From: a virus
DNA length: 24,034 bases
UHGV virus genome: UHGV-0029496
Strand: one strand, 5' to 3'
The position numbers and the translations under genes are program-made. Below the pieces are notes generated by a model, which was not told the DNA's origin, searched no databases, and worked only from the letters and a program-made list of their open reading frames with translations. Of the stretch, positions 512-22,742 are shown in pieces; positions within the stretch are counted from its first letter, which is position 1; each line of letters opens with the position of its first letter.

Positions 512-3139
512 TTAGCTAAAACCGTTGCTGAATCCGCCGGAGAAACCGCGACCGAAGGGTGCGACACCGTCGTATTTATAGAAATCCGCTTCATAGTTAA
601 CCCCGGTAATCTTAACTGTTCTGTCATCTCCGGGGTCAACTGTAGAAACAAGAATCATCTGAGCATTATGCCTTGCTTCGTTGCCGAATGAAAACTCAGT
701 TTTTAGTGCGCTATTCCCTGTGTAAATTGCCTCCTGCGGCGCGGATAACATAACCACTTCACGGTCATGACTTCCAGGAACTACAGCGACGCTCTGGACA
801 CCACCGTCGCGCTTCTTAAGGATTAAAGAGTGGTCGTCACCCGGAGTAAATGTGACAGGCTGTGATAAAGTCAGAGTAAGACCATTAACGGCAACAACAT
901 AGCCGTCTTGAGGCGCTACGCGCGAACCTTTAACGACGCTTATTGCGCGACCCGGCAGCACAAAAACTCCCTCTTCTGTCGCTGTAAAGGACACCGTGAC
1001 TTTCTTCAACAGGTTCTTCTGGTACCGACGGTACGCCGCCCAGTACGCCTGACGATAATTACGTATACCTTTGGAGTCATACGTTTCAGTATTAACACCA
1101 CCTTCGGCTGGGATGCTGATGGTCTCTTTTACGTTAGTATCTGGGTCGATGTAGGAGAACTTAAGACTATCATATACCTGAGCGTCGTTGAACGTTCGGG
1201 TCCACTTCTCCGTAGCTGTAGTCTTGCTGCGATGTGTGAACACCATCTCCGGGCCAATCCGCGGGCGCTCGAAATCCAGTAATATGTCCTGCCCTTTACG
1301 ATATGGTATGCAGAAAATAGCGTCGGCTATTGTGCTGATTATGTCCTGCATAGTCATTTTATAATCGTCAAAAGTGTAGCAGAATTGACCGGCCTCTGCG
1401 TTACCGAAATAGTTTTCTATCTCGTTCTGAGTCGCTAACAACTTGTCCATATTGGATGTGGTTAGGTTGAGATTACCTACTACCGGGTCGCGGGCAAGAC
1501 GGATTAAGGACTGAATCGCCTGAGTATTTGGTGTCATAACCGTGTCGAATACGCCGTTGCCGAGGTATTTGTACACCATCTCTGTGGCAACCATACGTAG
1601 TTGCGGCTGCTTAATCTCCGCGGCCCGCGGCGTCTGCTTACGTGCGGAGTGCACGGTAGTACGGTTGCCGTAATGCGGTGTAGTGTCGCGTACCTGCCCA
1701 TAAAGATTGATGTAGGAAACCTCATCTACCACGGTTCCCTCAAAACTGAGGTCCAGGTCAGTGACGCGGCGGGCACGTACCCTAACTTTCGACCGCATGG
1801 GCAAGTCGGCGTAAATAGTAACACCTGTGTAATCCGCAGAACGACCTGATATAACGGCCTGTTTTGAGTAAACATCACCGTACGGCACGCCAGTTCCATC
1901 AAGGAGTTGATACTGAAGCTCGACAGTTACCGACGTGCGCAATTTACTGCCGTTGTCTTTATACATACCATTCGCGGCCGCGATGTTGGCTACTACACGT
2001 TCAACTTCCAGGCGGTTTAAGGTAGTCCAGTCCGTTAACGACTTATCGTAAGTGTTCGACGGTGAAATCCATGCTTCGGTACCTTGCGTTAAAGGAGTGA
2101 ATCCCGATGGCAATTTTTGCCATGCTGACAACATCCCTCCGACGGCTACTCTTACCTCAAAGTCATCTACGTATGTAACAGTATAGCTACCACTGACGTT
2201 AGCCACGTCTTTTACCAGAATAAGGTTAAAAACAGCTATGTCCCCAACTGATAAAATCTCAGAGAAAGCAGAGTCGCCAGTGTTATCGCGGACGACACCA
2301 GTTGCCCCCTGCAATGAAATCTCACCGGTATCACTGGGATTAACCCTGATGTCGTTCTGCGCTTTAAGAACAGCCCCATCTACCTCGTTCGAGGTAATAG
2401 TTATGTATAGATTTTGATTAATAGGATCCCCTACCAGAAGCTGAGGCGTATTTGTATTGTTAGGGGATGTAAATGGGGCGTATACCGCTACAGAAGTTCC
2501 TGTAATCTCCTGCACTTTAGTATCGCCGTCTGTGATGTCTTCGGCTTTAATATCAAGATACCCGCGACCGGCGTCATAGTAGCCGTATTCAACTACCACA
2601 CCTGCGTCATTGAAGACCTTATACGTAGTCATGAGGTCATTAGGGATAGTCTGGACCCTGCCGCAAATATCATACGACCGTTCATACGGCCGCGGTTTAT
2701 TGTTTCGGTCAGTCAGGCTGTTGTTGGGAGACTCCGCCTGCTGGTTCGCTAAACTCGTTTTAGGCGTTTTCTGCGACGGAGAAATCAACTTGGTAATAAA
2801 TTTAAGCACACCCAAAGGGTCAAGGAGTTTACCCAGAAAACCACCACCGCCGCCAGCACCCTCGATGATATGGAAAACGTCATCTTCTTTCAGCGCTTCG
2901 AAGTTTTCCGTTACGTCTGTATCATCACCAATCTCGCCGCGGTAAATACGCACAGGTACCCCGTCTGGGATGTTAGCAACGACGTATTCCATCGGAGGTA
3001 CGTTATACCGTTTGCGGTCAAAAGTACCGTCTTCGTTACGGGTGTAATGTAATATCAGCGCCAAAATTCTATCTCCGCATAAGTTTCGCGCAAGTCTTCC
3101 AGTCGGTCTAACCGTACCTGGCGACTTGCTAGCTCGCAA
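512..3139 (-). CDS. Tail tip protein: gpI-like N-terminal domain fused to a large J-like central fibre / host-specificity protein
   Basis: 875-codon ORF. N-terminal VRIYRGEIG...VFHIIEGAGGGGGFLGKLL resembles lambda tail assembly protein I (VIHIVPRVAGAKSGG). Track start is TTG at 3139; alternatives are TTG 3064 (GGAGA SD) or ATG 2992. Position after K-like gene. Confidence 0.6.
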   Translation of the reverse strand: MRASKSPGTVRPTGRLARNLCGDRILALILHYTRNEDGTFDRKRYNVPPMEYVVANIPDGVPVRIYRGEIGDDTDVTENFEALKEDDVFHIIEGAGGGGGFLGKLLDPLGVLKFITKLISPSQKTPKTSLANQQAESPNNSLTDRNNKPRPYERSYDICGRVQTIPNDLMTTYKVFNDAGVVVEYGYYDAGRGYLDIKAEDITDGDTKVQEITGTSVAVYAPFTSPNNTNTPQLLVGDPINQNLYITITSNEVDGAVLKAQNDIRVNPSDTGEISLQGATGVVRDNTGDSAFSEILSVGDIAVFNLILVKDVANVSGSYTVTYVDDFEVRVAVGGMLSAWQKLPSGFTPLTQGTEAWISPSNTYDKSLTDWTTLNRLEVERVVANIAAANGMYKDNGSKLRTSVTVELQYQLLDGTGVPYGDVYSKQAVISGRSADYTGVTIYADLPMRSKVRVRARRVTDLDLSFEGTVVDEVSYINLYGQVRDTTPHYGNRTTVHSARKQTPRAAEIKQPQLRMVATEMVYKYLGNGVFDTVMTPNTQAIQSLIRLARDPVVGNLNLTTSNMDKLLATQNEIENYFGNAEAGQFCYTFDDYKMTMQDIISTIADAIFCIPYRKGQDILLDFERPRIGPEMVFTHRSKTTATEKWTRTFNDAQVYDSLKFSYIDPDTNVKETISIPAEGGVNTETYDSKGIRNYRQAYWAAYRRYQKNLLKKVTVSFTATEEGVFVLPGRAISVVKGSRVAPQDGYVVAVNGLTLTLSQPVTFTPGDDHSLILKKRDGGVQSVAVVPGSHDREVVMLSAPQEAIYTGNSALKTEFSFGNEARHNAQMILVSTVDPGDDRTVKITGVNYEADFYKYDGVAPFGRGFSGGFSNGFS

Positions 3140-3420
3140 TGACTGACCATACCATCATAATATACGCCAGCGTGCCAGATTACACGGTTTCTGTGCCGTG
3201 TTGCCATCAGCACGGCATCGAAGTTTTGCGGAGTTTCTACGCGTACGAGGCCTTTAGTGTCTTTATGGCCTTCTTCGAAGGCGTCGTTAATCTGTGTTGG
3301 TGAAGCGACGTTAAACTCTGGCGTAAAAAGACCAGCGTCGGTACGAACGTTACGCACGTGGTGCCAGCAATTACGACGGCGAAAATCGTACGGTAACCCA
3401 GTATAAGAATTAATGTTCAT
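3055..3420 (-). CDS. Tail assembly protein, NlpC/P60-like (lambda gpK-like)
   Basis: ATG at 3420 overlaps the upstream stop (ATGA). Cys-His motifs NCWHHV, WHAGVYYDG, SHCEL fit an NlpC/P60 peptidase core; lies between L-like and I/J-like genes as in lambda. Confidence 0.55.
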   Translation of the reverse strand: MNINSYTGLPYDFRRRNCWHHVRNVRTDAGLFTPEFNVASPTQINDAFEEGHKDTKGLVRVETPQNFDAVLMATRHRNRVIWHAGVYYDGMVSHCELASRQVRLDRLEDLRETYAEIEFWR

Positions 3421-3932
3421 GTAGACAAAACACCACGTAACAATGGGATTACCGAAGGGGTCATTAGTTCACCGGTGGCTCTTTGGTTCAACATAGGGAC
3501 GCCGACGTCAGCTGTGAATATCCCCTTTTCCTGGTTTATCGACTGCAACTCGTATACAACTGGCCCATCAGCCGGGTAGGTTAAATCTGTGCTGACGAAA
3601 CGGCGGAATATGAACTTAGGTAACACCGTATTGTCCGGCGGTATGCGGTCCATCTCATCGTCTAATTGGTTACCGATGTCAGGTAATGCGAACGACGCCC
3701 GCTGGTCCATGTCGTTATTGTTGGCGGCTCCTTTAGCCTCCATAGGGGTGGCTTCAAACGTAACGACTTCGCCGGTCTCTAACGTCGCCGTCAGGTCGGA
3801 AGTTCCGCGGACAAGCAAATACCGCTTCGAAAGAAGCGGGTGTACTATCTCCAGCGTCGTGTAGTCAATTTCGCCGTCGGGATTTGAGGCCAGCTTACGG
3901 CGATAGGCAGCTTCTACTGATTCCTGGCTCAT
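3417..3932 (-). CDS. Minor tail protein, gpL-like N-terminal domain
   Basis: 171 aa; position between M-like and K-like genes; loose pattern resemblance to lambda gpL N-terminus, but lacks the C-terminal Cys cluster. Confidence 0.4.
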   Translation of the reverse strand: MSQESVEAAYRRKLASNPDGEIDYTTLEIVHPLLSKRYLLVRGTSDLTATLETGEVVTFEATPMEAKGAANNNDMDQRASFALPDIGNQLDDEMDRIPPDNTVLPKFIFRRFVSTDLTYPADGPVVYELQSINQEKGIFTADVGVPMLNQRATGELMTPSVIPLLRGVLST

Positions 3933-3935
3933 AAA

Positions 3936-5306
3936 TTAACCGTCCACATTAAAGTCGATACGAGTGATGTATTTACTACCCCACACGGAATCTGCCTGTG
4001 GAATAATGGCGTAATCATCTACAGCCGGAACGTTCACCATGGAGCCATCTGAATAGGCAATGTCGATACTTGTTGCGCCGTTCATTACTACTTTTGCTGA
4101 TGCCGTCGTGCGCGTTCCTGGTGACAATTCGGTTACTATCGGGGACGAGGCAAAGCCGCGTTTTTCTATTTGCGGATTGAAAACAATAATTCCGCTAATA
4201 CCATCTCCCTGAAATGAGCCGTTTGTTGCAGAGGCGTATAGCATAACCCTGTACTGAGCTGATAACGAAGATAGCCTCGATGCGTCGAAAGATATTGATA
4301 CAGACGCATAACCACCAAGATCCGCAATAGATGCCACTCCACCGAACGATGATTTGATAACTTTGCTATCAATGTCTGCAACAACAGATGCGACGTCAAA
4401 ATTATCCGAGTTTCTTATATATAATCTTAAAAAATCCAAACCATTACCAGCCGCTATGACGCTGAATGTAACATAATCTTCTGCATCTAATTGCATGTTT
4501 TGAGAAAAGTAATGAGACCCGCTGGTTGTAGTAGCGATCACTGAAAATATATCCGATGTAGCTTCTCTATTGACTGTGACGTTTGTTAGTGAAGAAGATG
4601 AAATGTCTCCTGAATTTATATAAAGATTTTCAGAATAATATTCTGGAGGCACCCGTCCGACAGCAACCCCATCGATAAACGTAAGGGGCCATTCATTTAC
4701 GGCGGACTGCACAAGATTACCGTTTCGGTTGATGTAATAAACCTGCGGCCCGTCATACACAATGCGACTATCCAGCGTGAGCGCCAGAAGGTTGATCGGC
4801 GGATAGCCGGCTGGCCCTTCATCGCTCCTGATGCGCGGGAACGTAGTCTCATAGTTCGCGTATACTTTCAGGAAACTACCCAGACAATCCCCGTAACAGC
4901 CATACAAATCTGGCAGATTCTTAGTAAGACATGTGTCTTCCTGAATTGCTGTGCGCTCTGCTGTAGCAGTAAACGTAATGACCCAGTTTTTACCGTCGTC
5001 TGTGCTATCGCTAATGTCGGACGTAATAAGAACCTTGTGGTCTTCGATACCTAAACCGGTATCATGAGGCATGATGAACGAAGATGCCCCGCCGTCTATG
5101 TTATTCAGGAAGCTATAGAAAGCCTGACGGCCTAGTGACGATACGACCAGGGTAACGCTAATAGGTACCGGTTCGAAGTATGTATCACGCCCCTGTCGAG
5201 GCACGCCACCTTGCACTTCTGTACGCCAGATATTACTCCCTCGCGTTTGGGAGTACCCCTTCGACACTATTGGTCGAAGGGACATAGGGAATCTCAAATC
5301 ACTCAT
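3936..5306 (-). CDS. Distal tail protein, gpM-like N-terminal domain with long C-terminal extension
   Basis: 456 aa directly after the tape measure gene; N-terminus has the GYSQ motif seen in lambda gpM (GDGYSQRAP); about 340 extra residues, partly encoded by a visibly AT-rich segment (about 4380-4700). Confidence 0.55.
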   Translation of the reverse strand: MSDLRFPMSLRPIVSKGYSQTRGSNIWRTEVQGGVPRQGRDTYFEPVPISVTLVVSSLGRQAFYSFLNNIDGGASSFIMPHDTGLGIEDHKVLITSDISDSTDDGKNWVITFTATAERTAIQEDTCLTKNLPDLYGCYGDCLGSFLKVYANYETTFPRIRSDEGPAGYPPINLLALTLDSRIVYDGPQVYYINRNGNLVQSAVNEWPLTFIDGVAVGRVPPEYYSENLYINSGDISSSSLTNVTVNREATSDIFSVIATTTSGSHYFSQNMQLDAEDYVTFSVIAAGNGLDFLRLYIRNSDNFDVASVVADIDSKVIKSSFGGVASIADLGGYASVSISFDASRLSSLSAQYRVMLYASATNGSFQGDGISGIIVFNPQIEKRGFASSPIVTELSPGTRTTASAKVVMNGATSIDIAYSDGSMVNVPAVDDYAIIPQADSVWGSKYITRIDFNVDG

Positions 5307-5309
5307 TGG

Positions 5310-7619
5310 TTAATACCCCGGCTGGTTTCGTGTAGCCCGGCGGGACTTGGAGATTGCACTGTTGCTGTCTTGTAACGCCGCCGATACTGTTTCACTGATG
5401 ATAACACGTAACCGCCCTTCGTCGTCACGCTCTGTAACGGCGGAATCAACTCGTCCGGTGGTGTTGTTGACGATTGTCACGCTGTCACCGCCTGACTTGT
5501 TGCCGTTCTCGCCCATAATCTGGCGCATTTGTTCGGCGGTACGGACGCGTGATGCCCCCGCTGGCATAATAACTTCAGGCTTGTTACGTTCGGCGATGGT
5601 GGATAGTTGCCCGGCGGCTAAGTTACCGCCCTGCTCACGAGCCGAACGAATCTTACCAATGTTCGCCAGACCTGCTGCTACCGCTGCCGCGGCAGCTACG
5701 GGGCCGAGTACCCATCCGACAATAGGAATCGCGGACGCAGATTTATAAGCCTCGATGGCGGAGGTGTATGTGGCTATTGTAGCCTGAGCAATAGCAAACG
5801 CTTTATACGCGCTAGACGCTTCACCAAGTGACGACTTAATATTGTCCGCCATCATGCCGAAAGCGTTACCCGTAGCGTTGGCGCGCTTCAAAGCATACTG
5901 GCCGTTTATCGCGTTAACCGCGGCCTGATACTGTTCCTCGTTTATAAGATTTTGTTCCCGGTACCGGTCTGCAACGTCCAGTTTTTGCTGTTCCTGAATC
6001 TCGAGAAGCTCAAGCTCAGCGGCATTCTGGCCCATAATCTGGGCCATGAAGTCTTCACCTTTCTGGTTCTTTTCCTGCCGTTCTTTCTCTCGCTTGGCGA
6101 GTTCTTCCTGGCGTGCGGTGTCCGCCTCCAGCATAATCTGAGTTTTGGCGTTTTCGTACTGCTGCTGGCTTATTGTTCCTGCTCGGTTGAACTCTTCGAG
6201 TTTCGCCAGTTTCTGTTCTTCCGCCGCGGTGATACGAGAAATTTCGTCTCCGGTTGTACGGTCAACCGTAGCTAGGAAATCTTCTGCGGCTTTCTTCTGG
6301 CGTTGTGCTGCCATTTCTTCACGTTTGGTCTGTGCCGCCAGACGTTCCTCGTTCGATTTAGCCTCTCGGTCGGCCTTCTCTTTCTCGGCCTTGTCAATGC
6401 GGGCGATGTCTTGCTGCGCTTCCGCGTCACGAGCGGCATTATACGCTGCAATCTGTTCTTTGGTGACGGCTTCACGTTTAGCGAACGCCTGTTTATCGAG
6501 TTCAGCTTGCGCCCGGATGCGCTCACGGTCACTTAGGATGGCGATTTGCTGGTTCTTAACAATGGCTTCGTTCTGTTCCTGGAATCTCTGCGTGGTTGAG
6601 TTGACGTTACGACCAAGATTCTTTTGAGCCTCCGCTGCCGCGTTTGCTGACTTCTCCGCGTTCTCCAGTGCCGTGGCGTTCTTGTTGGCATTGTCAGTAA
6701 GGCGTATAAGTTCCGGGTTCAACTGTTCCGTGTTACCTAGCCAGTCGGTGAACACATCGGCGATGCGACGGGCGTTCTCCGCGGTCGGCTCTTTGTTAAA
6801 CGCACTCTGCGCCGCTATCATCTCCAGCGCCTGGTCGCGGTTAACCCCGAACTTACTGCTAAGCTCCGCAATGTTCTGCGCCAGCATGTTGACGCCTACG
6901 ATATTACCCTCGTAAGTGCCGCCGAGTTTTTCTAACGTGTCGCCTACATCAACGCCCTTAGATACCAATGCATCATACTGGCTAATCGCCGATGCCGTGG
7001 ATGCTTTCCACGTTTCCCACGATTCTGCGTCCTCGCGAATGGCTTTAGCTGTTTGCTGCGCGATAAGGTCCGCGTTGGCCTTAGCTAGAGCAAGCTGAGT
7101 CTCCGCCGCTTCTCTGCTGATTTGGGTAAGCTGGATAAGGCCGTCTGTCAGTTCAAGAGAACCGGATGCCGTTTGCTGGAAAGTATCTTTTAACTGCTTC
7201 TGCGCAGCTTCGAGGTCTTTTGAACTGCCTTCTGCTTCGGTTAGCGATTTATACAGGACACCGCCAATTGCTGACGCAAGAGCAATTACAGCCCCAAGCA
7301 CCGCACCACCGGGGCCGAAAGCACCAGCAAGTTGGGAACCTTGCTGCCCTATCGCAACGAATGCAGACGTACCGGATTGCAACTGGACTACCATGTCCTG
7401 CACCTGGTAACCAACCTGCTCGGCGGCATTGCGGAACTTGGCAAAACCGTCGAACACGGCTTTAGACGTAGCGGAATTTACTTTATTAACATCCGGCGTT
7501 AGTTTGTTTACAGATGTGTCCGCCCGGTCTGCGGATGCCGCCATAGCGTCAAGCTGTTTAGCAGCTGCATCAGCGCCTTCTGTTTTTACTCTGGCAATTA
7601 GGGAAGCCGTATCAGCCAT
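5310..7619 (-). CDS. Tail tape measure protein
   Basis: Long Ala/Gln/Glu-rich alpha-helical ORF downstream of the G/T chaperone pair, with Gly-rich hydrophobic segments. Track start is TTG at 7634; first ATG is at 7619 (MADTASLIARVK...). Confidence 0.8.
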   Translation of the reverse strand: MADTASLIARVKTEGADAAAKQLDAMAASADRADTSVNKLTPDVNKVNSATSKAVFDGFAKFRNAAEQVGYQVQDMVVQLQSGTSAFVAIGQQGSQLAGAFGPGGAVLGAVIALASAIGGVLYKSLTEAEGSSKDLEAAQKQLKDTFQQTASGSLELTDGLIQLTQISREAAETQLALAKANADLIAQQTAKAIREDAESWETWKASTASAISQYDALVSKGVDVGDTLEKLGGTYEGNIVGVNMLAQNIAELSSKFGVNRDQALEMIAAQSAFNKEPTAENARRIADVFTDWLGNTEQLNPELIRLTDNANKNATALENAEKSANAAAEAQKNLGRNVNSTTQRFQEQNEAIVKNQQIAILSDRERIRAQAELDKQAFAKREAVTKEQIAAYNAARDAEAQQDIARIDKAEKEKADREAKSNEERLAAQTKREEMAAQRQKKAAEDFLATVDRTTGDEISRITAAEEQKLAKLEEFNRAGTISQQQYENAKTQIMLEADTARQEELAKREKERQEKNQKGEDFMAQIMGQNAAELELLEIQEQQKLDVADRYREQNLINEEQYQAAVNAINGQYALKRANATGNAFGMMADNIKSSLGEASSAYKAFAIAQATIATYTSAIEAYKSASAIPIVGWVLGPVAAAAAVAAGLANIGKIRSAREQGGNLAAGQLSTIAERNKPEVIMPAGASRVRTAEQMRQIMGENGNKSGGDSVTIVNNTTGRVDSAVTERDDEGRLRVIISETVSAALQDSNSAISKSRRATRNQPGY

Positions 7620-7983
7620 CTTCTCTGCCCTCAAATATTCCGTCTAAGCCCATGATAACCTCGGCTTCGAACAAACTTATGCCGTAACCGGCGACATCAC
7701 GAAACGCTACCAAATCTTGCCATTTGAGCGCATCGCGCGGGATTATAACGATAGTATCATCTGTTTCGCGCTGTAGGAATTTAATGGCACGGTATTTCTC
7801 GAACACGTCGATAAGAGAAACGGGGCATTCTGGCCCCGTCGCTTCTTTCATCTGCGGTTCTTTAATCACGCCCATTGCAATCAAAGCCGCCTGGTGCCCT
7901 GCCGCGATGTCGTCGAATTGCTTACGTTTGTGGCGGTCGACAAAGCACCATTGCGCAAACTCATACAGCGCTTTTACTTTTCC
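7612..7983 (-). CDS. Tail assembly chaperone -1 frameshift extension (gpT-like), expressed as a G-T fusion
   Basis: The -1 frame relative to the G ORF is open from 7998 to the stop at 7612-7614 and overlaps the last G codons; slip candidate G-GAA-AAG at 7977-7983 (minus strand) just before the G stop. Confidence 0.45.
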   Translation of the reverse strand, partial: GKVKALYEFAQWCFVDRHKRKQFDDIAAGHQAALIAMGVIKEPQMKEATGPECPVSLIDVFEKYRAIKFLQRETDDTIVIIPRDALKWQDLVAFRDVAGYGISLFEAEVIMGLDGIFEGREDG

Positions 7984-10451: not shown

Positions 10452-10463
10452 CCGATAAATAGT

Positions 10464-10483
10464 AAGGCCCTGAAAGGGGCCTT
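10464..10483 (+). terminator. GC-rich hairpin after the three-gene operon (weak terminator or attenuator)
   Basis: aaggccc-tgaaag-gggcctt, 7-bp stem, no clear U-tract. Confidence 0.3.
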
Positions 10484-10496
10484 ATCGCAACAGGAG

Positions 10497-10991
10497 ATGA
10501 TTATGGACTGGAATGAATTTTTCATATACGACTTAATTTCAGGAAGGATATTTAACAGAGTAACACGTTCCGGGAGGGCTAAGGCTGGAGAGGAGGCAGG
10601 TACGGTACAGCGAGACGGATATAGAAGGATATTTTTCAGGGGTAAATGGCACGCGGCGCACCGTATAGCTTGGGACTTAAACAATACTAACAATAAGCTA
10701 ACCTCGTCAGATCAAATAGACCATCTAGACCATAACCGAATAAACAATAGGCCGCTTAACTTAGCTAAAAAGTCCAATGCGGAAAACCATAAAAATATGT
10801 CAAAACAGCGTAATAATAAATCAGGAGTAACCGGGGTTTACTGGAACGCGAAAGAAAGGTTGTGGTACGCACAGATATTCAACAATAACGTAAAAACACA
10901 CATCGGGTGCTTTAAAACGCTACTAGATGCAGTTGCCGCAAGGAGAGTTGCTGAAAGAGATTTAGGGTTCCACGAGAACCACGGTAAATAG
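10497..10991 (+). CDS. HNH homing endonuclease with C-terminal AP2-like DNA-binding domain
   Basis: HNH core AHRIAWDL...IDHLDHNRINNRPLNL; C-terminal GVTGVYWNAKERLWYAQI...IGCFKTLLDAVAARR is AP2-like; Asn-rich and AT-rich codon usage unlike neighbours. AGGAG abuts ATG 10497, so ATG 10503 may be the true start. Confidence 0.75.
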   Translation: MIMDWNEFFIYDLISGRIFNRVTRSGRAKAGEEAGTVQRDGYRRIFFRGKWHAAHRIAWDLNNTNNKLTSSDQIDHLDHNRINNRPLNLAKKSNAENHKNMSKQRNNKSGVTGVYWNAKERLWYAQIFNNNVKTHIGCFKTLLDAVAARRVAERDLGFHENHGK

Positions 10992-10992
10992 T

Positions 10993-11016
10993 AAGGCCCC
11001 TTTCGGGGCCTTTTCC
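10993..11016. terminator. Bidirectional rho-independent terminator between convergent genes
   Basis: aaggcccc-tttc-ggggcctt followed by ttttcc on the plus strand; also U-rich on the minus strand. Sits between the plus HNH stop (10991) and the minus major tail stop (11017). Confidence 0.7.
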
Positions 11017-14698: not shown

Positions 14699-15040
14699 TT
14701 AAGACACAGTTGCTACAGTGCTACTGGAGATAATATTACCATACACATCATGAACAACCACTTTATACGTGCCTGAATCTGCGGTAGTAGTGGACGCCTT
14801 CGCATAGGAAGCAGCGTTTGCCCCGGCGATAGCGTTGTTGTTCTTGTACCACTGGTAGGAATATGGCTCCAGACCGCCAGTTACGGCTACGGTCAGTGTC
14901 ATGGTTTCACCCGCGGTAACGGAGGTAGTAGCCGCCAGTGCGGAAGAGAAAGACGCGGGAGAAATAGTCTCCATGTCAATCTTAGCACCCACTGTATCCG
15001 CAGAAACACCAGTAGTGCGTCGTTTTAGCACGTCTGCCAT
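14699..15040 (-). CDS. Ig-like domain head decoration protein (Hoc-like)
   Basis: AAGAGGA SD; 113 aa with Ig-type signature YSYQWYKNN...SGTYKVVV; immediately after the major capsid gene. Confidence 0.55.
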   Translation of the reverse strand: MADVLKRRTTGVSADTVGAKIDMETISPASFSSALAATTSVTAGETMTLTVAVTGGLEPYSYQWYKNNNAIAGANAASYAKASTTTADSGTYKVVVHDVYGNIISSSTVATVS

Positions 15041-15056
15041 TGAGGAATCCTCTTAG

Positions 15057-15085
15057 TAAATGAAAAGAGGGACCGAAGTCCCTCT
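15057..15085 (-). terminator. Rho-independent terminator after the major capsid gene
   Basis: agagggac-cgaa-gtccctct (8-bp stem) followed on the minus strand by UUUCAUUUA. Confidence 0.5.
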
Positions 15086-15101
15086 CGATTATATCTTAAC
15101 C

Positions 15102-16154
15102 TTAAGCCCCGACACCAGTTACCAGGAAGGCAATCGGTACATGCTTACGCTCAACCACACGGTTCCAGTTGGAGGCGTTCGCCAGGTCCTGCCAGGAAGC
15201 AGAGCGGGCGATAGTCTCGGTGCCGTTACCGGTGATTACCGCACTGGTGAAGCTGTAACCAAACGGATGCAGCAACCAGGTCTTACGGGTCCACAGGGTT
15301 TCAACGCCACCACCGTTACCGCGAGACGCTTCGCGCTCGTATTCCAGCGGGTTAGACGGAGAACCTTCACCATAACCAATAGCGCCGTTGCCGAAGATAA
15401 TGGAGATGAACTTACGGCTAGGGCCAGTACCGACTACGGTCATGCTGTCGTCAACAATCACACGGTAGCCCTGGTAGGTGGCGAACATGGTGTTGTTATC
15501 GGCATCGCGGATGAAGTCGATAAGCTGCTGCTTACGCGCCTGTGCATAAACGAAACTGTGCATCGCGATAGCGCCCAGTACTTCACCGCCGTTACCCATC
15601 AGAGCATCGCCCATGGTCTGGGTAGCGTCGATGAATGCGCCCGCGTCGAAGCCCAGAGTCGCGGACACGTCTACTACCATGTCGTTCTGCACGTGGTAAG
15701 CATCGGTAGCGGTTACGTTGTTGTTGTACAGACCTAGCGCAGTAGCAATCAGACGGCGTTGTGCCTGACGCTGCCAGAAGTTATCCAGACGAGAAGCCAC
15801 GGATTGCAGCGGGTTCTGGCTGGTCAGTTCTACAGTCAGGTCAGCCTGTCCAAAGCCTTCGTTCAGGTAAGCTACACGAACGTCCATCTCACCGGTTTGC
15901 ACGTTACGAGGGGTGGCGATGTCCTGATATACGTCGTTCGAGTAGTTCGGCTCGATAGAGGTATCAATCGCTTTCCAGTACGGCAGAACAGCTTTGTTGG
16001 ACGGGCCGTTAGCGATAGCCGCTGCGTACGGAGTCGGGGTCAGAATACCGGACTGGAAGAACGCGGTTTTCTCTACCGGGTCTTCTGTCATGTAAGACAG
16101 AATGACCGATTCTTTACCAGTTACGATGTCGCCGATAGTAGTAATTGCCATCAT
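15102..16154 (-). CDS. Major capsid protein
   Basis: 350 aa directly after the scaffold gene, followed by decoration gene and terminator; GAGGAAAA SD; start overlaps scaffold stop (ATGATGA). Confidence 0.8.
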   Translation of the reverse strand: MMAITTIGDIVTGKESVILSYMTEDPVEKTAFFQSGILTPTPYAAAIANGPSNKAVLPYWKAIDTSIEPNYSNDVYQDIATPRNVQTGEMDVRVAYLNEGFGQADLTVELTSQNPLQSVASRLDNFWQRQAQRRLIATALGLYNNNVTATDAYHVQNDMVVDVSATLGFDAGAFIDATQTMGDALMGNGGEVLGAIAMHSFVYAQARKQQLIDFIRDADNNTMFATYQGYRVIVDDSMTVVGTGPSRKFISIIFGNGAIGYGEGSPSNPLEYEREASRGNGGGVETLWTRKTWLLHPFGYSFTSAVITGNGTETIARSASWQDLANASNWNRVVERKHVPIAFLVTGVGA

Positions 16155-16855
16155 TTTTTCCTCAGGGCTTTAAGTTGCCGTTCAAATTCGGCAGGGTTCG
16201 ATTCGTACAGAGCGATACGCTCCGCTTCACTCATGTCTTTAAACGCTGGTGCGGCCCCGCCACCTTTGCTACCGGAAGCCCCGCCGCCGGAAGCTGCATT
16301 TGCTTTAATCAAATGCGAAAACGCTTTGTGTTCGCGCAGATATTTGCGGAACTGTTCCGGGTCAGTCGTGATTACATTGCCATCTGCACCAACAAACTTA
16401 GTAACCACATCATCGCCTTCGAACTCAGTCTTAACGAACGGCGCAAGAATGTCTACTGCTTCCGGGGTGATAAAGTCGCCCGCGAAAGAGCCTAACACCG
16501 CTTTACGTTCGCTGCCGAGGATGCGCTCTGCCATTTTGGAGATGCGGCCATCTTTCTCGGCTAACACCGGGTCATACTGGCTACGAATCGTCTTTTCGAA
16601 CTCGTCCATCTTACCGGCGGCTTTTAACGCCTCCTGGTGCGCGCGCTGCCGTTCTTCTTCGGCCTCTTTTGCTTTACGAGCGGCTTCTTTCTTCTCCGCC
16701 AGCAATGCTTCCTGATTAGCCTTAAGCCCGGCAACTTCTTTCTCGATCAGCGCCTGAACTTCTTCGGCGGTGAACATTTTCGGCGCGTCACCGCCGCCAG
16801 ATTTATCTTCTGCCCCAGCTTCTTCCTGGAACGGATAACGTAAAAAACGATTCAT
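16151..16855 (-). CDS. Capsid scaffolding protein
   Basis: Charged Ala/Glu/Lys-rich coiled-coil sequence (EEVQALIEKEVAGLKANQEALLAEKKEAARKAKEAEEERQRAHQEALKAAGK) directly upstream of the capsid gene. Track start is TTG 16909; first ATG is 16855. Confidence 0.7.
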   Translation of the reverse strand: MNRFLRYPFQEEAGAEDKSGGGDAPKMFTAEEVQALIEKEVAGLKANQEALLAEKKEAARKAKEAEEERQRAHQEALKAAGKMDEFEKTIRSQYDPVLAEKDGRISKMAERILGSERKAVLGSFAGDFITPEAVDILAPFVKTEFEGDDVVTKFVGADGNVITTDPEQFRKYLREHKAFSHLIKANAASGGGASGSKGGGAAPAFKDMSEAERIALYESNPAEFERQLKALRKK

Positions 16856-19349: not shown

Positions 19350-20831
19350 TTACTGCTGATTGGCGTCCTGTTGTTGCGCCGACTGCGGAATCTCTCCTGA
19401 TACCTGAGCAACAGCACCTAATGGTAGGGGTGCGTCCTCAATCGCAGTCTTAATCTCCTCGTCAGTCCAGTCAGTAACCCCCGCCTTACGCAATGCCGCG
19501 TAGTAAGCAGTAGCGGGTAGCAGGCCGGCGTTAATATCCGCCATCCACTGCGCTCGTTCGGGCGCGGTCATCGGTTGCAGGAAGAACTCCATATTCAGTT
19601 TGAACTCAATCTCTGTGCCTTCACGCAACCCTAACATCGCAGCTACCCAGCGCAGCGCATCGGTGTACGCCATGCTTACGTTACGCGCGATTGTCGCCAT
19701 AACAGACGTGTCAGCACCACGTTGCAGGCGGGCCGATTCAGCGGTGATTTGCTGTGTCGGGGTGATAAGCTGCGCGCCAATCTGGATGGCCTGATTCTCT
19801 TTATCCAGCATGTTCTGTTTGGCGAGGTTATTCTCTCCCGCCTGGACCAGAAACGCGTTGCCGCCGTACCCGATGTTATGACCCGAACGTGACCCCATGC
19901 GCACGCCGTGGGGGTTGGCTTCTTTCCACTGTTCTATGCCCATGTTCTCCCCCGGGGCGATGAACAGAGTAGGCTGGCCAACAACGAAGCTGGACTCCTC
20001 ATTGTCTGCGCTGTTGCGGAAATGCCCAATATTAAGCTCAGCCAACGGCAGTAGAGGCGCATCGTCGATGGTCGCGTCGTTGTTGCTCGCCCCGATAAAC
20101 GTGAACGGGATTTTGCCGCGTAACTGTTCCCCAAGTTCCGGGAATATTTCGATTACTTCATCCTGGGCACCACCTTCGGCATCGAATCTGTAAATGCGCT
20201 GGCGGTAGCGCCCGTCAATCAGGTCAAGGACGCGGTATTGTTCACCGAACTTGGTTTCGAACTCTGCACCGGGTTCTGAGTATTCCCATACCTCACGCAG
20301 CACGACCATCGTCACGCGGTTAACTGAACCGACGCGAGTCAGTCGCCAGTTGATGATGTTCTCTGCGGTGTAGAATGCGATGACCGGGTTTAATAATCCA
20401 GCATTCTGTTCGGCCGCCGTGGCCGCAGCAGTCTCCGGGGCATCAACCAGCAACCCACCGCGGCCTACAGAGTCAATCTCCATCAGCGTATCCTGCGCGT
20501 GCTGCCACAGACCAACACCGGAGCCGTCCGCATTGCGTAACAGGTACTCCAGTTCAGGCGGAATAATTTGTTCCGGGTCTTTGCGCATCACCGACCCCAC
20601 CATCCCCGCCAGGGTACGCTTAGTGAAGTTGTAGCAGATAGCACCGTTCTCGTATTCTTCCTGGCGCTGGGCCGCGTAGGTCGGGTCAGGCTCATTCTTT
20701 CCGACGTTGCGAAGATAGCGAATAATGTCGCCTTCCAGAGCGTGGCGTACCTTCTGCCATTTATCGAAGTGATGCAGCCATTCCCGGTGTTTTGTCTTAA
20801 CACCTTGATTCTGACCGTTCATAGTTAACAT
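19350..20831 (-). CDS. Portal protein
   Basis: 493 aa between the terminase/HNH genes and the Mu-F-like gene; GGAG SD 9 nt before ATG 20831; size and position typical. Confidence 0.8.
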   Translation of the reverse strand: MLTMNGQNQGVKTKHREWLHHFDKWQKVRHALEGDIIRYLRNVGKNEPDPTYAAQRQEEYENGAICYNFTKRTLAGMVGSVMRKDPEQIIPPELEYLLRNADGSGVGLWQHAQDTLMEIDSVGRGGLLVDAPETAAATAAEQNAGLLNPVIAFYTAENIINWRLTRVGSVNRVTMVVLREVWEYSEPGAEFETKFGEQYRVLDLIDGRYRQRIYRFDAEGGAQDEVIEIFPELGEQLRGKIPFTFIGASNNDATIDDAPLLPLAELNIGHFRNSADNEESSFVVGQPTLFIAPGENMGIEQWKEANPHGVRMGSRSGHNIGYGGNAFLVQAGENNLAKQNMLDKENQAIQIGAQLITPTQQITAESARLQRGADTSVMATIARNVSMAYTDALRWVAAMLGLREGTEIEFKLNMEFFLQPMTAPERAQWMADINAGLLPATAYYAALRKAGVTDWTDEEIKTAIEDAPLPLGAVAQVSGEIPQSAQQQDANQQ

Positions 20832-20835
20832 AGTC

Positions 20836-21450
20836 TTACTCCGTAGTTAGTTTACGATATACAGCCGCGCACTTTCGCCCGCAGGTGACACGAGGTTTAT
20901 AGCGGTTATGCTCGTGAGTAGCGCCGCAGACGGGGCATATAGCTGTTACGTTATCTACCCCCGAAGCCCGTCTATGTGCCGCTAAGCATCTTTTAGAACA
21001 AAAACAATTCTCGCCCTTTGTCGGTATGGCCGTAAACTCTTTGTTGCAATAAGAGCATATTTTTTCAACCTTAACGTGAAGTTTGTCTTTTGTGGCTTCG
21101 TAATGTGCCTTATGCCACTGCCGGCCTGCTTCACTGGCGTGCCACTCTTTAGTTAAATGCTGGTGCTTGCGGCCCATTTCGGCCGACCTGGCACGCGCTT
21201 CATCAGTAGAGAAATGCAGATAGCTATGGTCTGACGCCGAAAGCATCTCTAGGTTTTCTATTTGATTATTTGAGCGGTCTTCGTCTTTATGGTGGATGTC
21301 ATACCCTTCTGGGATTTCCCCGTTGAAATATGACCATACAACTCTGTGCAACCTTTTAACAATTGATGAGTTCATAAAATAGTTACCACACAAATAGTAA
21401 CGCGTACCGTTAAATTCTTGGATTGTTGGGGATATAACTTTTACTCGCAT
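20836..21450 (-). CDS. HNH endonuclease with C-terminal Cys-rich zinc-ribbon region
   Basis: HNH core YDIHHKDEDRSNNQIENLEMLSASDHSYLH; Cys clusters CSYCNKEF, CFCSKRC, CPVCGATHEH, CGRKC. Track start is TTG 21477; ATG 21450 follows an AGGAGG SD. Confidence 0.8.
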   Translation of the reverse strand: MRVKVISPTIQEFNGTRYYLCGNYFMNSSIVKRLHRVVWSYFNGEIPEGYDIHHKDEDRSNNQIENLEMLSASDHSYLHFSTDEARARSAEMGRKHQHLTKEWHASEAGRQWHKAHYEATKDKLHVKVEKICSYCNKEFTAIPTKGENCFCSKRCLAAHRRASGVDNVTAICPVCGATHEHNRYKPRVTCGRKCAAVYRKLTTE

Positions 21451-21506
21451 ATAGCCTCCTGATTGTTTACCTGACAATATCAGTAAGACCGATGCGAGTA
21501 AATACG

Positions 21507-22742
21507 CTATAACGTGAATCTGACAGGAGTGTTGATAACAGGGCGGACAACAGGGAACAACCTATGCATACAATAACCTAAACTGTCGTTCCAGTCGTCG
21601 ATAGCCGGGTGAGTTTTAAACTTCTCCGGTTCACCATTATCGTTATACCCCTGCGTCTCCAGTGACTGCGTCAATTTAGGGCATTTTGAAGTGTTAACCC
21701 TCAAACGGCTATGTGACAAAAGAGCGTTAACCGCGTTTATTCTGTCTTTAACGAATGGGTTCTTACTCGGAGCGTTAACACGTAAGCCGGCCTTTTCGAT
21801 GATACCTATGTCGGATAACGATGCGTTAGTGTGGCCTGAGCGACCAGAGGCGTCAGGGTAAACCGTAACCGTATGGCCCGGATACCGTATCCTGACATTA
21901 TTGACGAAGTCGTCGGTATTATGGCTGACAAACTCATCAACAACCGTCGGGTTGCCGTCTTCGATAATGCTCACGGTGGCGCAACAGCCGCCGATGTTAA
22001 AGTCCAACCCTATGTGCAGAGCGTCTCCGTTCTGCAAGGTGCGAGTGGAGTCATGTGTGTTTCGTTTGAAATAGTGATACACCTTATTGGCCGTCAAACT
22101 GACAAATTCACCGTTGATATACATATCAGCCAAAGCCGCGTCGTAGTTCCTTCGTATCTGCTCGACGTAGCCGTCAGGTAAATATGGGTTCGACAATGTA
22201 GACGCCTTAATCAGTTCCGTAGAACTGTCAGCGTTAGTAACCCAATAGTCATACACAAATCCGGAGAATCCCTGGTCGGGCGTAGTCACGGCGGCAATAC
22301 TGTTCCCGCCCCTACATGGCTGTCGGGTGCGCTCTGAAATTTTACGCCACACCAGGGACGCCTGTTCTTTAGTAAGAACGTCAAGTTCATCGGCGACAGA
22401 ATGGGCTACTTCAAAAGCGATTAGACGGTTCGGGTTGTCATAGGACCTGAAAAACATAGTACCGTACCCCTTAACATGGATACTGTATTCCGATTTGTTG
22501 AGGTCATACTTAAGCCCCATCATATTCAGGTCATCAACCACACCAGGGATGGCGCGCAGCTTCAACAGGTCATATGTAGGCATGGTGTACAGGGTGTTTA
22601 TCCCGCGCTCGCGCAACATGAGATACAGGAGGCGCATAGTGGCCGCGCGGGACTTGCCCGCCCCCAGTCCAGCGACAATAGCTGGATGTGTCTTTGTACT
22701 GAATACAAAGTCCTGTTGGGGTTCTGTTAATGGAATATCCAT
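21507..22742 (-). CDS. Terminase large subunit
   Basis: Walker A GLGAGKS near the N-terminus, Walker-B-like LIAFEVAHSVADE, C-terminal Asp-rich nuclease-like region; TAATG overlap with the upstream small ORF. Confidence 0.85.
   Translation of the reverse strand: MDIPLTEPQQDFVFSTKTHPAIVAGLGAGKSRAATMRLLYLMLRERGINTLYTMPTYDLLKLRAIPGVVDDLNMMGLKYDLNKSEYSIHVKGYGTMFFRSYDNPNRLIAFEVAHSVADELDVLTKEQASLVWRKISERTRQPCRGGNSIAAVTTPDQGFSGFVYDYWVTNADSSTELIKASTLSNPYLPDGYVEQIRRNYDAALADMYINGEFVSLTANKVYHYFKRNTHDSTRTLQNGDALHIGLDFNIGGCCATVSIIEDGNPTVVDEFVSHNTDDFVNNVRIRYPGHTVTVYPDASGRSGHTNASLSDIGIIEKAGLRVNAPSKNPFVKDRINAVNALLSHSRLRVNTSKCPKLTQSLETQGYNDNGEPEKFKTHPAIDDWNDSLGYCMHRLFPVVRPVINTPVRFTL

Follow-up and report, generated by a model that had tools for sequence, protein, structure and literature searches.

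An exchangeable carbohydrate-binding-module-like cassette in the C-terminal extension of the distal tail protein of an Escherichia coli Kagunavirus

We analyzed a 24,034-nucleotide stretch of viral DNA (UHGV virus genome UHGV-0029496; hereafter, “the window”), which belongs to an Escherichia coli Kagunavirus (Guernseyvirinae) and shares approximately 90% DNA identity with Escherichia phage AV104 and other Kagunavirus members. The open reading frame (ORF) at positions 3936–5306 of the minus strand has an ATG start, coincides exactly with the gene as first delimited, and encodes a protein of 456 amino acids (aa), which we identified as the long form of the distal tail protein (Dit, or DTP) from its place directly downstream of the tape measure protein (TMP) gene and upstream of the hub and tip genes (DUF1833, K-like, and TipJ-like). 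Behind a core (aa 1–160), the protein carries an optional extension (aa 161–456), the center of which is hypervariable, AT-rich at the DNA level, and exchanged between phages as a cassette. We hold this structural and evolutionary description with high confidence, and we consider it fairly probable that the extension acts as an accessory, exchangeable glycan-binding adhesin. An extended protein of this kind is already known, without a function, from Shigella phage Sf11, in a paper that leaves family, fold, and variability unmentioned; what is new here is the assignment of a family and a fold, the cassette behavior, and a testable link to the host.

A segment at approximately 4380–4700 had been described in the first-pass annotation as visibly AT-rich and possibly acquired horizontally. 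Because the N-terminus lies at 5306 on the minus strand, this segment encodes aa 203–309. A sliding-window calculation confirmed the compositional anomaly as more than a chance fluctuation: among all 23,735 overlapping 300-nt windows, the lowest GC content was 0.34, in the one starting at 4345, approximately 4.1 standard deviations (SD) below the mean of the whole stretch (0.511; SD, 0.041), and the stretch below 0.40 GC extended over 4212–4721. The GC content at third codon positions (GC3) was 0.20–0.37 over aa 211–330 and 0.30 over aa 222–385; therefore, codon choice is shifted as well, and the dip is not solely an effect of amino acid composition. The only two other islands below 0.40 GC in the window are both HNH homing-endonuclease genes (10497–10991 and 20836–21477), and low GC marks mobile DNA in this genome. 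The strong AT bias was confined to the allele of the window and that of Logan contig L026 (GC 0.38–0.40), as opposed to 0.45–0.51 in the other cassette alleles. The AT-rich allele is rare, and its composition is consistent with recent acquisition from a source of lower GC.

The nucleotide identity between the window and AV104 was mostly 80–100% in the flanks (approximately 90%), down to position 4647. From 4646, immediately past an invariant GRVPPE motif, it fell to 0.43–0.53 (approximately 45% across roughly 4197–4646), and it recovered between 4197 and 4107. At least 11 cassette types were found in 20 genomes, forming allelic classes at 13–54% identity that all bear the same family signature, and the type in the window occurred only there and in L026, the sole relative found (77% identity in the cassette). 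When pairs of genomes sharing a cassette type were compared, the synonymous divergence (dS) was 0.10–0.28 in the cassette versus 0.33–1.8 in the flanking segments of the extension. For the window and L026, the cassette dS was 0.23, whereas the values for the core, stalk, and C-terminal strands were 0.70–1.52; the corresponding values were 0.12 and 0.50–0.66 for Bas75 and Bas73, 0.11 and 1.0–1.8 for K1ind1 and EC3-1, and 0.28 and 0.33–2.5 for Bas75 and Bas80. Judged by these distances, the cassettes are much younger than the flanks in the pairs that share them. The proposed horizontal acquisition of the AT-rich part is thus borne out by both the sharp identity break against the closest genome and the discordance in dS. 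Between the window and L026, the ratio of nonsynonymous to synonymous divergence (dN/dS) was 0.52 in the cassette, versus 0.02–0.07 in the flanks. A diversity-generating retroelement was considered as the source of this variation and rejected: the window contains no repeat of the cassette, ruling out a template there, and the alleles differ as whole domains (13–54% identity) rather than at adenines specifically.

The anatomy of the extension was resolved by aligning the protein with 120 database homologues and calculating, per 20-aa block, the share of sequences carrying the query residue. This share was 87–100% over aa 1–220 (68% over residues 1–20, a stretch omitted from many gene calls), only 11–56% from aa 221 to approximately aa 395, and 78–92% over aa 400–456. 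The segment preceding the cassette (aa 161–220; positions 4647–4826, minus strand; pLDDT 86–97) comprises a Pro/Gly-rich linker and the conserved N-terminal strands of a head-spike-fiber-like module, and ends in GRVPPE. Its identity was 87–97% among Kagunavirus relatives, 73–80% with Sf11 and Bas80, and 65% with one IMG/VR relative, and the motif TLDSR..Y..G.L..A.N.WPL.F.DG.AVGR.PPE within it is common to stand-alone homologues of approximately 300 aa. The cassette itself (aa 221–400; positions 4107–4646, minus strand) carries the NF048003 “phage head spike fiber” domain, predicted to be a beta-sandwich resembling family 4 carbohydrate-binding modules (CBM4-like). It is followed by the conserved C-terminal strands (aa 401–456; positions 3939–4106, minus strand; pLDDT 95–97), whose motif ASAKV.MNGATSIDI.YSDGS...IPQADS.WGSKYITRI is common to Sf11 gp17 and the stand-alone homologues.

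The NF048003 profile matched aa 225–400 almost end to end (profile positions 6–181 of 182), with a score of 59.8 bits against a cut-off of 36. Since the other long-Dit alleles tested also passed this cut-off (nine of nine, 43.7–140.8 bits), all cassette types are divergent alleles of one domain. In the PDB, the family profile matched Sf11 gp17 (9OCC) over aa 161–454 only, and the head spike fiber Rcc01080 of the gene transfer agent (GTA) RcGTA (6TB9) over aa 215–422 (E 5.6e-23). An exhaustive HMMER scan with aa 121–456 yielded 377 representatives, many of which are stand-alone proteins of 290–330 aa whose N- and C-terminal motifs are conserved as in the extension, around a variable middle; some of these are named “phage head spike fiber domain-containing protein” by NCBI. 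The structure prediction that had been proposed for the extension came out in favor of the first-pass annotation: a second AlphaFold2 (AF2) run, with a diverse alignment and aa 155–456, gave a model with a pLDDT of 92.1 and a pTM of 0.88. Matches of this model in BFVD were phage tail fibers and ConA-like lectin proteins, and further fold likenesses included the phi812 CBM-cenC baseplate protein, Tuc2009 BppA, and CBM2 of the evolved Dit of phage J-1. The protein is therefore a Dit with a domain of CBM fold, as evolved Dits are. The earlier suggestion of a carbohydrate-binding, evolved-Dit-like domain holds insofar as a CBM fold is predicted; however, the domain is a C-terminal addition and not an insertion, its family is that of the GTA head spike fiber, and carbohydrate binding itself is inferred.

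The extension is an optional module. Among 576 related GenBank phage records, 514 matched only aa 1–159, and the module (aa 161–456) was present in approximately 11%, so that it is missing in most relatives, an outcome in favor of the first-pass annotation. Short Dit forms (157–166 aa) were found in IMG/VR relatives, K1G (L041, 4938–5438), K1H (L042, 3249–3749), and Bas81 (L044, 3669–4142); in the IMG/VR relatives, K1G, and K1H, the protein ends at 164–166 aa, right after “TFPRIWDPMQ.” Because the short relatives stop there, the core is aa 1–160 and aa 161–456 is optional; the earlier estimate of a core of approximately 115 aa with some 340 aa following is revised accordingly, to an extension of approximately 296 aa. 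Profile matches showed a similar division, phrog_384 matching aa 1–142 and phrog_11600, a separate family, spanning aa 126–454 end to end. In Sf11 and Bas80, the extension is fused to a Dit core only 17–19% identical to the core here, and the Skatevirus-like BASEL phages Bas77–80 show the same pattern of an unrelated core with a homologous extension. Furthermore, short (157–166 aa) and long (approximately 460 aa) forms coexist within single genera and on identical host strains: the K1-capsule-specific phages K1G and K1H have the short form, whereas the K1-independent phages K1ind1–3, whose host is likewise O18:K1:H7, have the long form with one common cassette type. In GenBank records OR061069 (M01), OR061068 (CR01), and PQ474795, and in one IMG/VR sequence (L004, 363 aa), the match to the long Dit is split over two coding sequences or the ORF is truncated; a frameshift or a sequencing error could explain this, as could decay of the extension.

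The core (positions 4827–5306, minus strand) is the only part common to the short Dit (164–166 aa) of Jerseyvirus, RP180-like phages, and K1G/K1H. A search of the PDB with the core profile gave no solved structure by sequence, only a spurious match, and Pfam gave no family for the whole protein at E ≤0.1. The first-pass annotation had likened the N-terminal part to the lambda gpM minor tail protein. Lambda gpM, the Dit of lambda, also lies directly after the TMP gene and has comparable motifs (GYSQ and SVTL...SFL..GG..SF), but it is 109 aa long and has neither the helix described below nor an extension. The likeness therefore stands at the level of weak motifs such as GYSQ; membership in the gpM family was rejected, since Pfam gave no match and hhalign assigned a probability of only 15.7% over 42 columns. 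A first AF2 run, based on 64 near-identical homologues (mean pLDDT, 57), was usable only over aa 225–383. In this low-confidence model, the core weakly matched the Sf11 DTP chains 9occ_C and 9occ_D (Foldseek E 1.4e-3 and 2.0e-3), and DSSP assigned an alpha-helix to aa 133–150 (positions 4857–4910, minus strand; low pLDDT), which is a candidate adaptor helix for tailspike docking. Conserved in the short and the long Dit forms alike, this helix is positionally analogous to the adaptor helix of Sf11 gp17 (approximately aa 129–152, inside modelled residues 3–165), which bundles with the N-terminal helices of the tailspike (PMC12724387). The type of core co-varied with the type of N-terminal tailspike anchor, Kagunavirus and Sf11/Bas80 differing in both.

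Two characterized proteins have parts homologous to the extension. Gp17 of Shigella phage Sf11 (Cedarrivervirus; PDB 9OCC) has 457 aa, the same gene position, and a homologous extension of approximately 290 aa (phmmer E 8.4e-75 over aa 165–454), with the stalk 80% and the C-terminal strands 79% identical and a cassette that also belongs to NF048003. It differs in its core (18% identity, non-significant by BLASTP), its tailspike anchor, and its cassette allele (26% identity). In Sf11 virions, gp17, which has the extension but not the core in common with the protein here, is located at the tube-tip junction in six copies, and its appendage is visible at low resolution (PMC12724387). The second is Rcc01080 (GhsB; NF048003, PDB 6TB9), a flexible, beta-rich protein with a homologous variable domain and homologous flanks, which binds capsule-bearing Rhodobacter cells experimentally (PMC10218006; PMC7296036). 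Rcc01080 is a stand-alone protein of 325 aa that sits on the capsid-vertex pentamer via an N-terminal Ile/Leu-Gly repeat (PMC7296036). In contrast, the module here is covalently fused to a putative tail-tip ring protein from aa 161 onward, and no (I/L)-G repeat is visible in its sequence.

A link to the host emerged for one cassette allele. The Bas75-type cassette was present in 17 phage records, which include all seven BASEL Kagunaviruses, four Skatevirus-like phages, and isolates from other countries, and every one of the 17 carries one of two O16-specific tailspike receptor-binding domains (RBDs), which are only 19% identical to each other. The association gave a Fisher p of approximately 4e-15 on the records, which are non-independent, and of approximately 3e-11 after a conservative collapse of duplicates. 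Phages Bas70–81 depend experimentally on the O16 O-antigen (PMC11990801). Bas73 (L030) and Bas80 (L032) are 86% identical in the cassette and 95% in the tailspike RBD, whereas their Dit cores (16%), J proteins (24%), and tailspike anchors (38%) are unrelated. Because these two phages share both host-facing modules across unrelated cores, J proteins, and anchors, the modules were exchanged between the two genera separately and ended up in the same phages.

Taken with the fold and the homologues, these data suggest the following mechanism. The core (aa 1–160) would form a hexameric ring below the tail tube, and the helix at approximately aa 133–150 would, by analogy with Sf11 gp17, dock six tailspike trimers. 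The Pro/Gly-rich linker may let six lectin-like modules of approximately 290 aa project outward from the tail tip, the conserved strands at aa 170–220 and 400–456 enclosing the hypervariable CBM4-like beta-sandwich (aa 221–400). The sandwich most likely engages, in a reversible manner, a surface polysaccharide that is polymorphic among hosts (O-antigen or a similar glycan), thereby adding avidity and positioning to the enzymatic tailspikes, and homologous recombination in the conserved flanks swaps alleles between phages, even between unrelated genera. A more specific version is that the Dit cassette determines serotype alongside the tailspike, as a separately exchangeable second element that needs to match the target glycan of the tailspike, so that host recognition by these “single-RBP” siphophages involves two modules, six lectin-like Dit modules and six enzymatic tailspike trimers. 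This version fits the O16 data, in which a single cassette type accompanies two O16 tailspike types that are unrelated to each other and spans two unrelated genera.

Several observations weigh against these proposals. The CBM-like fold is generic and is no proof of sugar binding; the cryo-EM paper describes the Sf11 appendage as “of currently unknown function” (PMC12724387); and the model behind the N-terminal Dit fold is of low confidence, since aa 1–224 were mostly below a pLDDT of 50 in the first AF2 run. No donor of the AT-rich allele was found: BLASTP matches among 150 representatives (50% level) peaked at 31–36% identity, GenBank phages reached at most 38% identity to the cassette, and scanning JGI metagenomes, IMG/VR, and GTDB genomes for patterns gave no relative. 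The extension is also dispensable for infecting the same hosts, as shown by Bas81 (157-aa Dit) on O16 K-12 and K1G/K1H on O18:K1. Cassette and tailspike do not always go together either. Phages 536P11 and Ivi are 98% identical in the tailspike and only 49% in the cassette; BUCT789 and Henuyfy11N match the L026 tailspike RBD at 96% identity, yet their cassette is only 31% identical to that of the window; and DUEC01 has a different cassette beside its O16 tailspike. The idea that cassette identity tracks tailspike identity in general was rejected (Spearman −0.12 over 153 pairs), whereas the narrower O16 association survived. Given 536P11/Ivi, L026/BUCT789, DUEC01, and the short-Dit phages, a match between cassette and tailspike is at most facultative, and a second serotype determinant that requires it is a tentative idea that we rather doubt. 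Because of the same counterexamples and the infections by short-Dit phages, the module is better regarded as accessory, with a ligand that need not be the tailspike substrate.

Other explanations of the extension were weighed against glycan binding. It might be purely architectural, spacing or scaffolding the six tailspike trimers and bridging the mismatch between six-fold and three-fold symmetry without a ligand of its own, which is roughly the role that the Sf11 paper's summary gives to the C-terminal part of gp17 (PMC12724387). The Sf11 DTP does dock tailspikes, and its appendage adjoins them in a low-resolution map (PMC12724387), but the adaptor helix lies within residues 3–165, that is, in the core, and short-Dit phages (K1G/K1H, Jerseyviruses, and Bas81) have tailspikes with the same anchor and no extension. 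Moreover, a scaffold is not expected to be hypervariable (query residue present in 11–37% of homologues per 20-aa block) beside flanks conserved at 87–100%, nor to be exchanged as a cassette, and we consider a purely architectural role unlikely. We give similarly little credence to the module binding glycans other than the receptor, such as gut mucins or a biofilm matrix, and thereby keeping virions near their hosts. The generic CBM-like fold, the origin of the phages from sewage and gut-associated samples, and the frequent reassortment of cassette and tailspike types agree with this idea, whereas the restriction of one cassette type to O16-tailspike phages in two genera and several countries, and the binding of the studied homologue to the capsule of its own producer species, speak against it.

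The variability could also reflect escape from a host or immune sensor of an exposed tail domain, that is, antigenic or defense evasion. The raised dN/dS of the cassette (0.52 versus 0.02–0.07 in the flanks for the window and L026) and the predicted exposure of the domain are in line with this, but we know of no defense system that senses Dit appendages, deep allelic classes (13–54%) with one family signature resemble specificity classes, and evasion does not predict the O16 association; we therefore find it quite improbable. Vertical inheritance of the gene, with the AT-rich stretch as no more than a local quirk of composition or mutation, is scarcely credible. Most cassette alleles do lie slightly below their flanks in GC (0.45–0.49 versus 0.50–0.57), so that part of the dip could be an intrinsic amino acid bias of the domain, but GC3 is 0.30, identity to an otherwise approximately 90% identical genome breaks sharply, the window/L026 dS is 0.23 in the cassette versus 0.70–1.52 in the flanks, and the other islands below 0.40 GC are only homing endonucleases.

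In the evolved Dits of siphophages with Gram-positive hosts, CBMs are inserted within the C-terminal galectin-like domain of the Dit. Here, the short relatives end at aa 164 after the helix and the module is appended via a linker, and hence no CBM inserted in a galectin-like domain was found. Compared with the evolved Dits of Lactobacillus phage J-1 (PDB 5LY8) and of lactococcal and streptococcal phages (PMC7291167, PMC6669499), the protein here has a complete fiber-like module of another family, belongs to a phage of Gram-negative hosts, is accompanied by enzymatic tailspikes, and shows cassette-like exchange of alleles. The baseplate wedge (triplex) proteins gp46 of Pseudomonas phage Pa193 and gp45 of E217 (PDB 9B45 and 8ENV) belong to contractile-tailed phages, have approximately 17% identity, and have no described ligand role. 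Among E. coli phages that depend on the O-antigen, Kagunaviruses and Skatevirus-like phages are common; they now serve as models and as chassis for engineering, and in the BASEL study, the tailspike is taken to be their sole receptor-binding protein (PMC11990801). If the extension is a serotype-matched lectin, it would be an overlooked host-range determinant, would provide a function for the appendage seen in the Sf11 cryo-EM map, and would carry the evolved-Dit concept over from phages of Gram-positive hosts to those of Gram-negative ones; with its conserved recombination flanks, it would also be a naturally modular site for retargeting or display. If the cassette is in addition a second serotype determinant, swapping the tailspike alone would retarget suboptimally. 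Should the extension prove not to be a lectin, the locus remains a clean case of cassette exchange within a structural gene.

The remaining genes of the tail module lie on the minus strand in the siphophage order TMP, Dit, DUF1833/gpL-like, gpK-like, TipJ, and tailspike. The TMP gene (5310–7634; phrog_1538, E 5e-189) precedes the Dit gene. Most database gene calls start the Dit protein at Met8 (449 aa); however, Met1 is the likelier start, because relatives whose residue 8 is Ala or Arg keep aa 1–7 and the ATG follows the TMP stop codon by 3 nt (window positions 5285–5306). The Dit gene is followed by a gpL-like hub protein gene (3417–3932; DUF1833, PF08875, E 2.4e-17; phrog_396), a gpK-like small tail protein gene (3055–3420; phrog_329; NlpC/P60-like in the annotation of relatives), and a gene for a TipJ-family central tail fiber or hub protein (512–3139; NF040662, E 1e-111; phrog_469). 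As called mechanically from a TTG at 3139, the TipJ-like ORF overlaps the K-like gene by 85 nt; the start annotated in relatives, approximately 10 nt before the K stop codon, would fall near 3064 here, which is probably the true start. The tailspike gene is represented by its 5′ end alone (1–497), encoding the conserved 165-aa N-terminal anchor, which is identical to that of L026 at 158 of 165 positions and to that of AV104 at 159 of 165; the receptor-binding parts of L026 and AV104 differ from each other. As the receptor-binding part falls beyond the window, the glycan specificity and serotype of this phage are not readable from it, and a look-up of further contigs with the Dit protein of the window found none. 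In L026, the receptor-binding part of the tailspike (14808–16607) is 67% identical to orf212 of CBA120.

Outside the tail-tip genes, the AT-rich HNH homing-endonuclease gene at 10497–10991 (plus strand; phrog_99) lies between the tail tube and exonuclease genes and is flanked by 34-nt, GC-rich, hairpin-like direct repeats (10453–10486 and 10982–11015; 79% identical), and AV104 has an HNH gene at the equivalent position. The second AT-rich HNH endonuclease gene (20836–21477, minus strand; phrog_15471) is inserted between the genes for the portal protein (19350–20831) and the terminase large subunit (21507–22742).

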